Positions 53,806 through 56,734 of a stretch of DNA of 64,000 nt are shown piece by piece. Under the pieces are notes generated by a model. It was not told where the DNA came from. It was given only the letters and a program-made list of their open reading frames with translations, and searched no databases. This stretch comes from Candidatus Undinarchaeota archaeon. GTDB taxonomy: Archaea > SpSt-1190 > JASMDC01. The stretch covers positions 1-64,000 of the forward strand of contig CAZFHY010000014.1 in assembly GCA_964519305.1 (NCBI GenBank). Reading direction: 5' to 3'. Both the position numbers and the translations under genes were made by a program. Numbering within the stretch: the stretch's first letter is position 1; every line of letters begins with the position of its first letter.

Positions 53806-55104
53806 TCAGCCGCCCCCCAGCACCGACATCATGGCGCCCATCTTGTTCTCCGTTTCGATGAACTCGTTCTCTGGGACAGAGTCCGCGACGATACCGGCGC
53901 CCGCCTGCAGGTACGCCTTGTTCCCCTTAGTGAATATCGATCTGATCGTGATGGCGAAGTCCATGTTCCCGCAGAAGTCAAAGTATCCGACCGCGCCAGC
54001 GTAAGGCCCCCGCCGGGTCATCTCGAGCTCCTCGATGATCTCCATTGCCCTGATCTTAGGAGCGCCCGAGACGGTGCCCGCCGGGAAGCATGAGCGCAGC
54101 GCGTCGAAGCAGTCCCGGTCCTTACGCAGCCTGCTCGTGACGTTCGAGACGATATGCTGGACATGTGAGTACTTCTCGCAGCCCATGAGCTCGTCCACCT
54201 TGACAGATCCGTACTCGGAGACGCGGCCCATGTCGTTGCGGTGCAGGTCCACGAGCATGATGTGCTCGGCCCGCTCCTTCTCGTCGAGAAGCATGCTCAC
54301 TTTCAGCTTCTCGTCCTCCTCGGGGTCCTTGGACCGGGGACGCGTGCCGGCCAGTGGCCGGGTGGTCAGGACGCTGTTCTCGAGCCGCACGAGCATCTCG
54401 GGAGAGGAACCGAAGACCTTCGACTCGGCGAAGTCGATGTAGAAGAGGTAGGGTGAGGGATTCACTTGCCTGAGGATCCGGTACATGTCGAACTCATTGC
54501 CCTTGAAGGTCGCTTCCGTCCGCCTCGAGATTACCGACTGGAATATGTCGCCCGCCCGGATGTACTCCTTCGCCTGCTCGACCGCGTTCTCGAATGCCGG
54601 GCTCTTCATATTGGTCCTCGGCTTACCGATCGTGAGCTCTTCTCGTTCCTCATCTCGATAGCTGTTGATAAGACCCTCGACCTCTCGGGCGGATCCGTGG
54701 GAGATCAGGTAGGCCTTCTGGTTGATGTGGTCGAAGCAGACGACCTGTGACGGAATGATGAAGTGCGCATCGGGAAGGTTCAGCTCGTCCGTTCTCAGTT
54801 CAGGGAGCCGCTCGAAGAACCTGACGATATCGTAGGAGAAGTATCCCACCATTCCACCCGAGAACGGGAGGAAGTCGACGGGCTCGGCACTGAAGTCGTA
54901 GAACTCGCGTCGCAGATAGTCGTACGGGTCCTCGCACTTCTCTCGGGTGCCATTGAACCGCACCTCGTGTCCCTTGGACCTGAAGGATAAGACCGGATCG
55001 AATCCGATAAATGAGTACCGCGCGGTCTTCTTGGTCCCCTCCACCGACTCCAGGAGGAAGCTCTCGTCCTTGTACTCCTGTTTGATCGCAGCGTATGCGC
55101 CCAC
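53806..55104 (-). CDS. trpE: Anthranilate synthase component I (frame is open to 55218; true start unresolved, see findings)
   Basis: SFLLES, NPSPY, GSSPE, PLAGT, AEH.MLVDL.RND, FPAGTVSGAPK, AGAGIVADS. Confidence 0.96.
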   Translation of the reverse strand: MGAYAAIKQEYKDESFLLESVEGTKKTARYSFIGFDPVLSFRSKGHEVRFNGTREKCEDPYDYLRREFYDFSAEPVDFLPFSGGMVGYFSYDIVRFFERLPELRTDELNLPDAHFIIPSQVVCFDHINQKAYLISHGSAREVEGLINSYRDEEREELTIGKPRTNMKSPAFENAVEQAKEYIRAGDIFQSVISRRTEATFKGNEFDMYRILRQVNPSPYLFYIDFAESKVFGSSPEMLVRLENSVLTTRPLAGTRPRSKDPEEDEKLKVSMLLDEKERAEHIMLVDLHRNDMGRVSEYGSVKVDELMGCEKYSHVQHIVSNVTSRLRKDRDCFDALRSCFPAGTVSGAPKIRAMEIIEELEMTRRGPYAGAVGYFDFCGNMDFAITIRSIFTKGNKAYLQAGAGIVADSVPENEFIETENKMGAMMSVLGGG

Positions 55105-55171
55105 GACGTCGAACCTGTCGAGACGGAGGTTCCGGACACGTGTTTTCAGAAGGTGTGGGTTGGACGTGGGA

Positions 55172-55222
55172 CTACCTTTGCGCTTCTTTCCGCCGACGCC
55201 AAAGATGATCCCTCCTTTTCAT
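55172..55222 (-). CDS. trp leader ORF MKRRDHLWRRRKEAQR with candidate +1 frameshift site CTT-TGG
   Basis: ATG AAA AGG AGG GAT CAT CTT TGG CGT CGG CGG AAA GAA GCG CAA AGG TAG; ATG about 29 nt after the TATA box; single Trp codon; the +1 frame is trpE. Confidence 0.7.
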   Translation of the reverse strand: MKRRDHLWRRRKEAQR

Positions 55223-55250
55223 GTGACCGAATAGAATAGACGCTTCCAGC

Positions 55251-55258
55251 TATATAAA
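55251..55258 (-). promoter_or_regulatory. TATA box of the trp operon
   Basis: TTTATATA on the minus strand upstream of the leader ATG. Confidence 0.7.
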
Positions 55259-55276
55259 GATTGCTATTATATGTTG

Positions 55277-55312
55277 ATAATTGTACATTATTGTCCATTT
55301 TATTATTGTCCA
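55277..55312. promoter_or_regulatory. TRP-box-like repeats (TGTACA/TGTCCA)
   Basis: TGTACA-N4-TGTCCA at 55282-55297 plus TGTCCA at 55307-55312; ATTATTGTCCA occurs twice. Confidence 0.55.
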
Positions 55313-55357
55313 CCCCTAGTAAAAGTATAAGAACCGGATCAGGCCGCATCCCGCCAC

Positions 55358-56734
55358 ATGGACGCTGAACACCTAGTTCCGCCAGATGAGCTCTACGACA
55401 AGGCGGTAACCTTCTTCGAGGGTGTCAGCAAGTACGACAAAGTGCTGGTCTATGGTGACGGTGATCCTGATGGGATGACCGCAGCGGTATGCGTGTCCGA
55501 GGTGCTGGACGCCCGACTCGCCACCTATGATGTGCGGTTCACCCGGGGCCAGCTCAATACAAAGGATGTCGAACAGGTGGCACGTGGCGGGTACAACAAG
55601 ATCTACTGCACTGACTTCTGGGAGATCTACGAGTCGCCCGTAGAGGTCGTCGCCGACATGGTCGAGAAGGTGAAGGAGTTCGTGGTGTATGATCATCATG
55701 ACATCCGCACCGCGGGGCGAGAGAACCTCGACCGCCTGTACGAGGAACTTGACAGGCGTGGCATCCGTGACCGGTTCACTCTCATAAATCCTAATCTGGA
55801 GGGCGTCGTCGAAGTCCCCAATGGCTCGGCATGGGAGTACCGGGTCGCCGAGCGGTACGTCGCCCGCCACCCGCGGGCGTTGCTCGGTAAGCATATGGCG
55901 CGACTCAAGGAGGTGGCGACAGCAGGAGCGATCCTCGACTACTGTGCACCACAGTCTGCCGACCTCGTGGCCGAGACGCTGCTCGAGCATCCCGATTCCC
56001 TCGACTGCGACCGGACGGTCCTGAGGAAAGCGCTGGATGACTACCAGAACGCCATACCGGAGGACGCTGTTACGTTTACTGCACTGAAGGAAGCACTGCC
56101 GTCGCAGAACGAACTGCTCGGCTCAACCTTCGGTCTCGCCGGGCGTAACACGTTCGCCAATTGGATTGTCGCTGGATGGCGCGGAGCACAGGACGTGTAT
56201 AAGGCGGCCAAGTCCATGGTCCGCGGAACTGGCTCCTTCAATGACCTCGTAGAGGACACGGGCAGGTTCCCTGCGTACTTCAAGAACGTGAACCGCGTGG
56301 AGGGCGAACTGACTTCACAGTACGCGATATTCGAAAAGGACCTGGAGCGTCACGAGCGGGGAGAGGATACGACCGCGACCTCGTTCGATGACGAGCTGGA
56401 GCTCGCTGTGTTCCAGTACTCCTCGGAGGATCCCTTGCGTTTCGCCAGCCATCTGTCCACAAACCTGCGCGACCGACATCCAGAGTTCACTTGGTTCGTA
56501 TACCAGATCAACGAGGAGAAGGGGTGGGCCGGTGGGAGCCTGCGTCTTGACGAGGAGCATTTCCCACAGTACGACCTCGCCCGCGCTGTAGCCGAAGCGT
56601 CAAAGGGCATTGACGGGGCACGCGGTGGTGGCCACAGTGCCGCCAGTGGAGCGAGCATGGCCGAGAAGGACCTCCCGCAGTTCATTGAGCGTATCAAGGA
56701 AGAGCTCAGGCAGCAGCGGAGTGCACCTGAATAA
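55358..56734 (+). CDS. DHH/DHHA1 family phosphoesterase (RecJ-like)
   Basis: YGDGDPDG, TD, YDHH, GSLR, GGGHSAASG. Confidence 0.88.
   Translation: MDAEHLVPPDELYDKAVTFFEGVSKYDKVLVYGDGDPDGMTAAVCVSEVLDARLATYDVRFTRGQLNTKDVEQVARGGYNKIYCTDFWEIYESPVEVVADMVEKVKEFVVYDHHDIRTAGRENLDRLYEELDRRGIRDRFTLINPNLEGVVEVPNGSAWEYRVAERYVARHPRALLGKHMARLKEVATAGAILDYCAPQSADLVAETLLEHPDSLDCDRTVLRKALDDYQNAIPEDAVTFTALKEALPSQNELLGSTFGLAGRNTFANWIVAGWRGAQDVYKAAKSMVRGTGSFNDLVEDTGRFPAYFKNVNRVEGELTSQYAIFEKDLERHERGEDTTATSFDDELELAVFQYSSEDPLRFASHLSTNLRDRHPEFTWFVYQINEEKGWAGGSLRLDEEHFPQYDLARAVAEASKGIDGARGGGHSAASGASMAEKDLPQFIERIKEELRQQRSAPE

Follow-up and report, generated by a model that had tools for sequence, protein, structure and literature searches.

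Introduction

Among programmed +1 frameshifts, known cases respond to a release factor or to polyamines. Leader peptides that report an amino acid and thereby control a biosynthetic operon are a textbook theme of bacteria, for which we know of no archaeal counterpart; the bacterial trpL leader, for example, carries tandem tryptophan (Trp) codons. The element considered here is a short leader open reading frame (ORF) that precedes trpE, the gene for anthranilate synthase component I, on a stretch of 64,000 nucleotides (nt) from a Candidatus Undinarchaeota archaeon (contig CAZFHY010000014.1, positions 1 to 64,000). This whole stretch is referred to as the window, all the window coordinates are given on its minus strand, and the genome to which it belongs (G000) measures 3.63 Mb. 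It is proposed that the leader may serve as a Trp sensor in the form of a +1 frameshift cassette gated by Trp starvation, a reading to which we give a probability of about 0.5.

The best-described +1 frameshift is that of the bacterial release factor 2 (RF2) gene, prfB. According to the available part of a 2016 review of recoding, it proceeds through re-pairing of the tRNA from CUU to UUU, with a Shine-Dalgarno (SD)-like stimulator 3 nt upstream (PMC5009743). The same part of the review states that, for functional trans-frame products of starvation-induced shifts at hungry codons, ‘no examples are known’. The archaeal recoding cases listed there are only those of the Mg-chelatase and of viruses, and neither trpE nor anthranilate synthase is mentioned in it (PMC5009743). 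In archaea, TrpY binds to TRP boxes between trpY and trpE, and a 2019 paper describes archaeal Trp regulation as little known apart from TrpY, which it names as the sole mechanism of trp control known there (PMC6737238). In a full-text literature search, no trp leader peptide, attenuator or frameshift was found before an archaeal trpE, and neither of the two mechanisms proposed below was found described in archaea. The first-pass annotation of this DNA likewise knew of no archaeal frameshift of this kind that senses an amino acid.

The leader ORF and the proposed +1 frameshift

The leader ORF (MKRRDHLWRRRKEAQR; 55222-55172) consists of 16 codons and a TAG stop at 55174-55172, and its codon 8 is the only Trp codon in it. 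It opens with ATG 55222, the first ATG after the TATA box (TTTATATA; 55258-55251), whose first T lies 36 nt before that ATG. Throughout the genome, TATA-like motifs most often have their first T at -32 to -28 relative to the start codon (counts of 20, 26, 24, 23 and 19, with 7 at -36, for 2,373 ORFs). On the basis of this geometry, the 5′ end of the mRNA is predicted to fall about 4-8 nt before ATG 55222, which would make the leader ORF near-leaderless. The trpE frame is +1 relative to the leader ORF. After a TGA at 55221-55219, this frame runs without a stop as far as 53806, so that trpE extends over 55203-53806 when counted from the +1 codon TTT; the first ATG, GTG or TTG in this frame after the TGA is GTG 55104. 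The coordinates assigned in the first-pass annotation to the leader ORF and to the stop-free trpE frame up to GTG 55104 were confirmed, as were all its other factual statements.

The proposed shift site is CTT-TGG (55204-55199), in which CTT occupies 55204-55202 and TGG occupies 55201-55199. As the CTT is followed by T 55201, re-pairing on TTT is possible, and a tRNA-Leu(GAG) gene was found in G000. Just upstream lies AGGAGG (55216-55211), complementary to the 3′ end of the window’s own 16S rRNA, the gene of which terminates in GGATCACCTCCT; both this complementarity and the distance of 6 nt to CTT-TGG had been annotated correctly before. When one base is skipped, the complement of the 16S 3′ end extends over AGGAGGGATC (55216-55207), a register that may represent the functional pairing. 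If GATC pairs too in this way, the duplex ends 2 nt before the CTT. GGAGG is located 11 nt before the CTT and 12 nt before the +1 TTT. In G000, GGAGG is usually placed at -14 to -11, and 12 is the most frequent SD-to-start distance; the normal SD geometry of this genome fits a P site on the CTT or, better, on the +1 TTT. Because the distance from GGAGG to the TTT equals the commonest SD-to-start distance, pairing with the 16S 3′ end would probably favour the shifted register.

In the proposed mechanism, ribosomes would initiate at ATG 55222, near the 5′ end of the mRNA and out of the trpE frame. At codon 7, tRNA-Leu(GAG) would sit on CTT in the P site, and the A site would present TGG. With charged tRNA-Trp in good supply, the TGG would be read, translation would stop at the TAG after 16 codons and no TrpE would be obtained from that ribosome. 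If it is scarce, the ribosome would wait, the tRNA-Leu would re-pair from CTT (55204-55202) to TTT (55203-55201) and GGC (55200-55198) would be read next. Pairing of the SD-like AGGAGGGATC with the 16S 3′ end would promote this slip in the forward direction. The product would be a TrpE with the first seven leader residues and a basic linker, and the coupled, Trp-free genes downstream would follow. It is very likely that the leader is translated, since the corresponding leaders of methanogens have a well-placed SD and the ATG in the window is the first one, about 6 nt from the predicted 5′ end. The occurrence of the shift, its gating by Trp and the help of the SD-like stretch are predictions drawn from the sequence.

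The rest of the operon agrees with such a design. Downstream of trpE lie trpG, trpD, trpC, trpF, trpB and trpA (53804-48808), with Pfam matches to GATase, Glycos_transf_3, IGPS, PRAI, PALP and Trp_syntA, respectively; the TrpE homologues match PF04715 and PF00425. From trpE to trpA, no gap between neighbouring genes exceeds 1 nt and the overlaps measure 1-4 nt, as the first-pass annotation had it. The seven Trp enzymes contain no Trp among their 2,129 residues, whereas TGG occurs 11.2 times per 1,000 codons genome-wide. The leader TGG is thus the sole Trp codon on the coding frames of the operon. As the operon’s proteins are Trp-free, a starved ribosome, once in frame, could also finish them.

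Two other modes of slippage were considered and rejected. A shift at AAA-AGG with a hungry AGG does not suit a genome in which AGG is not rare (8.8 per 1,000), and codons 2-4 vary among the methanogen cassettes described below. Transcriptional slippage would have only the TTT and AAAA runs of the window site at its disposal.

The arrangement is like that of RF2 in many respects. In both, a short zero-frame ORF ends soon after the shift site, the P site has CUU followed by U, an SD-like stretch lies just upstream and the main product is in the +1 frame. The feedback would also be alike, with the end product of the pathway speeding A-site decoding and shutting the shift off. Unlike in RF2, however, the A site holds the sense codon UGG, read by tRNA-Trp, and not a UGA read by the gene’s own product, and the element is not a member of that system. 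Further differences are the gene (trpE), the archaeal host, the site at codons 7-8 beside the start, which is near-leaderless in the window, and the spacing from AGGAGG to the shift codon, which is 6 nt (2 nt if GATC pairs) as compared with 3 nt in RF2. The element also resembles the hungry-codon shifting of E. coli, where a slippery P-site codon slips while the A site awaits a scarce aminoacyl-tRNA. The latter, however, is known as an error process, whereas in the present model the product would be made by way of the shift by design.

Conservation within the genus

In the second species of the genus (G001), TrpE shares 95% identity with that of the window along the full open frame of 470 codons. 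The layout in G001 is identical to that of the window, with the ATG, the AAAA run, the AGGAGG, the CTT-TGG, the TAG and a start-less open +1 frame. Between the ATG and an ACG that lies just past the leader (55167-55165), the two differ by 1 change in 55 nt (CAT to CAC), which is synonymous in the leader frame and is the only one in the 51 nt of the leader ORF. From the ACG to 55137, there are 8 changes in 30 nt, spread 3, 2 and 3 over the codon positions, and the promoter spacer likewise diverges. Within trpE, 137 changes were counted in 1,332 nt, 114 of them at third positions (third-position divergence of 25.7%), and trpE is, on this comparison, under strong purifying selection. Only 2.8% of the 51-nt segments within trpE are as conserved as the leader. 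Since it shows 1 change in 55 nt while its flanks diverge like neutral sites, the leader is, judged from the alignment, a discrete element constrained more than ordinary coding sequence.

A scan of metagenomes returned one 5′ locus only, which equals that of G001, and a scan of the genome collection returned only G001. The metagenome contig, from another collection (L024), has 0 differences from G001 in 2,940 nt. The genome of the window (3.6 Mb) and that of its congener (3.8 Mb) stand apart from the other genomes of the class in the collection, which measure 0.6-1.2 Mb and have no TrpE match. The class placement of G000 looks odd for its size and biosynthetic completeness, and its contamination is given as 4.3%.

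A trivial origin of the layout was also considered, namely an artefact or a dying gene. One A fewer in the AAAA run (55219-55216) would put ATG 55222 in the trpE frame; the explanation would be either an assembly indel at this place or a trpE that has lost its start and is in decay. The Logan contigs of 4/4 examined runs, however, cover 54900-55450 with 0 differing letters and 0 gaps, at depths of 6-32. Eight runs from two studies contain the stretch, none of them listed as an RNA run, and the four examined may include the source sample, so that the assembly is tested rather than the population. The same AAAA is present in G001 and in the identical contig L024. The assembly indel that, according to the first-pass annotation, would refute its proposal did not turn up in any of these. 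As for decay, the strong purifying selection on trpE and the intactness of the whole operon speak against it. Taken together, an artefact or a dying gene is considered highly improbable.

The same cassette before methanogen trpE

The same cassette is found before the trpE of methanogens. In its 27 nt, a start codon is followed by an SD-like stretch, a slippery YTT and then TGG at codon 8, and trpE lies in the +1 frame. The first such case came from one of nine distant trpE loci (L006, genome G018), in which an SD and an ATG opening MQGSEYFWKNP are followed by TTT-TGG as codons 7-8, with trpE in +1. These nine loci were used out of 12, as the matches of L010, L011 and L013 begin at residue 96 or later. 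Among the relatives of G018, the cassette is present in 30/30 best trpE loci (three families) and in 6/20 further loci, which were hand-picked from about 200 remaining matches to cover genera not yet seen; this makes 36 loci. A script recovered 35 of them; L041, which failed its filter, is one of the 30 best loci scored positive. Every type-1 trpE examined in the methanogen phylum has the cassette, except those of g43 and G101. The gene mcrA is present in the cassette-bearing methanogens, which are taken to be Methanobacteria-like, and not in G000 or G001.

TTT-TGG occupies codons 7-8 in 36/36 methanogen cassettes. In the 35 scripted loci, the start codon is ATG in 34 and GTG in one, with an SD 4-mer 5-9 nt upstream. 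Codon 6 is TGT, TAT, TAC or TGC. The leader tail past the TGG has 0-18 unconserved codons, and in two loci the stop comes at once. The core GTGAATGTTTTTGG is near-invariant, its nucleotides being kept in the two frames alike, and the sequence on either side of it is free to diverge. There is also a purine-rich stretch ending in GTGA, with 4 nt from its GA to the slippery codon, as in the window. The methanogen cassettes use TTT-T in place of the CUU-U of RF2; re-pairing from TTT to TTT would be a perfect match, and the CTT-to-TTT step of the window would be the move of RF2.

When the 27-mer of the window (ATGAAAAGGAGGGATCATCTTTGGCGT) is set beside those of the methanogens (for example ATGTACAGGAGTGAATGTTTTTGGCAT of L032), the start, AGG as codon 3, an acidic codon 5, a Y-R-Y codon 6, the YTT, the TGG and the C after it are common to them. 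At most 20/27 bases are shared, with a mean of 18. A weight matrix was made from 20 unique methanogen 27-mers only, with the ATG excluded from the score, and was run over all the ATG sites of G000. ATG 55222 ranks first of 122,777 sites with 14.1 bits, the runner-up having 5.9 bits. The plain pattern ATG-N15-YTTTGG occurs 19 times in G000 (both strands); for 2/2,395 long ORFs, one of which is trpE, it stands upstream in the correct frame with no stop before the gene. The window leader belongs to a conserved element shared with the methanogen phylum, and the observation is real and rare.

The methanogen cassettes bear on the mechanism as well. A ribosome that stalls at the TGG and does not shift would, as we infer, cover both the leader start and the in-frame GTG, which lies between that start and the TGG, so only a shift would give induction in these organisms. 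Stalling without a shift would shut trpE off on starvation, which would be physiologically senseless.

It can also be argued that the cassette is bound by a regulator, either protein or RNA and for instance one of the TrpY circuit, or that it acts as a decoy start which does no more than hold trpE translation down. On this view, the Trp codon and the frame relation would be by-products, and TrpE would be made from a weak codon in its own frame (ACG or CTG in the window, GTG in methanogens) regardless of Trp. The conservation of core nucleotides in both frames suits a sequence-specific ligand as well as it suits dual coding, and the in-frame GTG is invariant in the methanogens. Transcriptional control, moreover, probably exists anyway. 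As in the TrpY and TRP-box control of trpEGCFBAD in M. thermautotrophicus, boxes of the TGTACA type, which we take to be the TRP-box consensus of TrpY, stand before the TATA box. In the window, these are three hexamers resembling TRP boxes, TGGACA at 55312-55307, TGGACA at 55297-55292 and TGTACA at 55287-55282; G001 has two exact TGTACA boxes at the matching position, and TGTACA boxes also precede the TATA box in the methanogen loci.

A trpY-like homologue was likewise detected in G000 (C18:55936-56436, L126; 36% identity, E 6e-29), the query being the ACT-domain gene divergent to a methanogen trpE, presumably trpY. At the cassette-bearing methanogen loci, such a divergent trpY-like gene adjoins trpE, whereas in G000 the homologue lies apart from it (C18), and the gene divergent to trpE encodes a DHH/DHHA1 protein. 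TrpY control would nevertheless be a transcriptional layer that leaves the leader ORF unexplained. A mere binding site or decoy would also not call for a start with a well-spaced SD in 35/35 methanogen cassettes, one ATG-to-GTG replacement among them still being a start, nor for a TGG fixed at codon 8 with a slippery codon before it in every case. The leader past the TGG varies freely, down to an immediate stop in two loci, and the operon is otherwise Trp-free. This explanation is held to be quite unlikely.

Loci and genomes without the cassette

The cassette was not found in 64 other archaeal trpE loci, comprising 8/9 distant loci, 14 methanogen loci, 29 new ones of a third phylum and 13 new ones of two more phyla. 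To be counted as a leader, an upstream ORF needed trpE in its +1 frame and a YTT followed by TGG within the stretch where the trpE frame is open. For the two further phyla, 10/18 loci (8 partial matches being dropped) and 4/4 loci were used. Of the 14 cassette-less methanogen loci, 11 encode a divergent type-2 TrpE that has an ordinary start, and the others belong to g43 and G101. A joint pattern that covers both versions of the cassette has one match in G000, at the ATG 55222 site, and 0 matches in 47 genomes of three phyla (40, 5 and 2 genomes). In 802 genomes of two large phyla it has 4 matches, which is the rate of the reversed-pattern control, and none of them is at trpE.

The type-2 TrpE (L056-L063, L073-L075) occurs in several methanogen genera, is 43-47% identical to type 1 and has the N-terminus MFSPSLEEVKEI. 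Its loci have an ordinary start and no leader, yet they retain the TGTACA boxes and the TATA box. The loci L068 and L069 (g43) and L064 (G101, family f31) lack the cassette and also have no in-frame ATG, GTG or TTG near the N-terminus. They have an SD (GGTGA or GGTGG) followed by an in-frame ATT; in L064, the frame opens with the ATT just past a stop, and CGG, not TGG, stands at the sensor codon.

The start of trpE and a hairpin over the leader

The position at which trpE starts is central to this discussion. In the window and in G001, no ATG, GTG or TTG was found in frame upstream of the conserved core of trpE. The first canonical start in the window, GTG 55104, would cut off a conserved N-terminal segment, and the argument of the first-pass annotation that a start there would drop a real part of the protein was upheld. 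This GTG was rejected as the start, since it is GTC in G001 and since 9/9 changes from 55137 on, within the part aligned, leave the trpE-frame amino acids as they are; the first in-frame canonical start of G001 falls within the conserved LLESVEG block. Clear protein-level constraint starts at 55137 (VRNLRLDRFDVV). The third-position bias of the changes, together with the synonymous changes from 55137 on, shows that trpE is functional and that its coding region starts upstream of that position.

An in-frame ATC at 55209 or 55206 was also rejected, as the SD is only 1-4 nt away from it and the second ATC is ACC in G001. A fourth congener known as a protein only (P0002; 391/412 residues identical) is called from an internal GTG, which is what the absence of a canonical start there would produce. 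A protein search for shorter fragments yielded no further congeners and nothing above 61% identity. G000 has a second TrpE-like gene (C11:84206-85540) with 32-37% identity and an open frame of 537 amino acids (aa), and G001 has one also; this distant gene of G000 is possibly PabB or another chorismate-utilising paralogue.

A candidate weak start lies just past the end of the leader. AGGT (55177-55174) is followed by a 6-nt spacer and an ACG (55167-55165), which lies 4 nt past the leader TAG and is ACG in both the window and G001. A third congener, available as a protein only (P0001), has 433/451 residues identical to the TrpE of the window and begins with MSDPNLLRTRVRDLRL. The AGGT-N6-ACG looks like the remnant of an ordinary ribosome-binding site, the ATG of which is kept in P0001 and would have turned into ACG here. 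A start at CTG 55149 is less likely than at ACG, as the residues of P0001 upstream of the CTG resemble those of the window. This CTG is overlapped by a third-frame ORF of 18 codons without a Trp codon, which runs from TTG 55202 to TGA 55148-55146. The TTG is 8 nt past AGGAGG, the best SD spacing in G000; the ORF is open in G001 and shows no clear conservation.

The leader is also predicted to fold on itself. A hairpin (55212-55168) pairs leader codons 4-9, including CTT-TGG, as its 5′ arm with AAAGGTAGTCCC as its 3′ arm, and ends 1 nt before the ACG. The minimum free energy of the 52-nt stretch is -19.8 kcal/mol in the window (z -3.33, with 1/200 shuffles as good) and -22.4 kcal/mol in G001 (z -3.82, 0/200 shuffles), where the substitution turns a U.G pair into C-G. 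The full 111-nt leader folds no better than its shuffles (z 0.35); the local hairpin alone does. No counterpart of the hairpin was found in the methanogen leaders (z about 0 in 31 unique leaders).

These features would allow translational attenuation without any frameshift, in the genus of the window only. The hairpin would mask AGGT-N6-ACG, a ribosome translating the leader would open it, one stalled at the TGG for lack of Trp-tRNA would hold it open and a second ribosome would start at the near-cognate ACG. In a variant, the ribosome that terminates at the TAG, 4 nt upstream, could itself restart at the ACG. The stability of the hairpin beyond that of shuffles in both species is in line with such a role, and so is its fit, the 3′ arm being exactly the approach from AGGT to ACG and the 5′ arm containing the TGG. 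The sole substitution in G001 strengthens a pair, the conserved block ends sharply at the ACG, and P0001 and the distant homologues have a Met start at the ACG position. Weak trpE starts, moreover, recur elsewhere, as in L068 and L069 with their SD and in-frame ATT. Attenuation cannot, however, account for the methanogen cassettes, which have no hairpin and whose candidate start lies upstream of the TGG. It also gives no reason why trpE is in the +1 frame of the leader, open in both species, and no ACG used as an archaeal start codon was found documented in the full-text literature search. Attenuation without a shift is, on balance, less likely than the frameshift but is its main and a serious rival in the genus of the window, where both routes may coexist.

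The leader and hairpin also invite comparison with bacterial attenuators. As in the attenuation of trpL, a short leader ORF with a Trp codon, presumably translated, precedes trpE and would report charged tRNA-Trp, and the enzymes are Trp-poor. Unlike in trpL, the leader of the window has a single Trp codon, and there is a single hairpin, with no terminator and antiterminator alternative and no run of T after it. Rather than transcription being terminated, the proposed read-out would consist in the ribosome changing frame or in a start being unmasked. In a similar manner to ermC and cat attenuation, the predicted hairpin pairs leader codons with the approach to the next start in the window and in G001. 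Here, however, the start would be ACG, the stall would be caused by a hungry codon and not by a drug, and the methanogen cassettes are without a hairpin.

Points against the frameshift and its present standing

Many observations weigh against a frameshift in this leader. The AGGAGG stands 6 nt from the CTT, compared with 3 nt in bacterial +1 sites, and chance alone would leave a +1 stretch of 18 codons open in about 4 cases out of 10. Shifting at a hungry sense codon tends to be inefficient, and the stimulation of elongating ribosomes by SD pairing is, to our knowledge, not established for archaea. The hairpin has no role in the frameshift and contains the shift site within its 5′ arm; as it starts 7-10 nt after the ATG, it could hinder initiation at the leader.

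The start of trpE is a second source of doubt. P0001 is called from an ATG, and its Met (MSDPNLLRTRV...) aligns with ACG 55167-55165. Distant homologues start in the same region, for example P0003 with MSTKNLKTSV..., in the pattern M-x(4-6)-LKTSVK. It may, therefore, be that the ACG with its upstream AGGT-N6 serves as a weak start and that no shift is required. For the methanogens, 35/35 scripted loci keep a GTG in frame 10 nt after the leader start, which could be the true start; it sits 15-19 nt from the SD, whereas the leader start has a well-placed SD. The comparison of DNA within the genus covers two sequences.

The Trp-gated frameshift put forward in the first-pass annotation has thus gained and lost ground. 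Its layout proved to be conserved in G001 and in methanogens, and the alignment of relatives, which it had suggested as a check, produced the cassette in G001 and in 36 methanogen loci. The same relatives, on the other hand, include methanogens that keep an in-frame GTG and a congener, P0001, with ATG at the ACG position, and the hairpin-ACG route and the 6-nt spacing count against the proposal as well. Even so, the +1 frameshift is judged from the sequences to be the best single explanation and the only one that fits both lineages. The wider proposal, that an ancient and portable cassette makes TrpE synthesis conditional on Trp starvation across the methanogen phylum, and obligatorily so in the marine, non-methanogenic genus of the window with its loss of every canonical trpE start, is put forward tentatively, as slightly short of an even chance.

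Other features of the window and its genome

A complete 16S-tRNA-23S rRNA operon lies on the minus strand of the window at 34979-30276. An Rfam scan of the window at gathering thresholds returned nothing beyond this rRNA operon and one tRNA. When G000 was screened for further short ORFs close to a TATA box, 34 were listed, none of which is a convincing leader peptide for another amino acid. Two His-rich ones (5 and 3 His) precede ORFs of 441 aa and 344 aa (C18 from 63800; C6 from 92711).

Significance

Whether by the frameshift or by the hairpin and ACG, this would be a Trp-codon leader that controls the translation of an archaeal trpE, of which no description was found. If the frameshift is true, it would be the first natural programmed frameshift that senses an amino acid and, at the same time, the first leader-peptide control of an archaeal biosynthetic operon; one element of 27 nt would fill gaps both in archaeal regulation and in recoding. 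Gene callers would mis-start or truncate trpE in these lineages, as in the case of P0002, which is called from an internal GTG. The cassette is present in cultured methanogens, so the idea is directly testable, and a shuttle vector has reportedly been published for methanogens of the cassette-bearing kind. The mechanism would then operate in the whole methanogen phylum, including genetically tractable species like Methanothermobacter.

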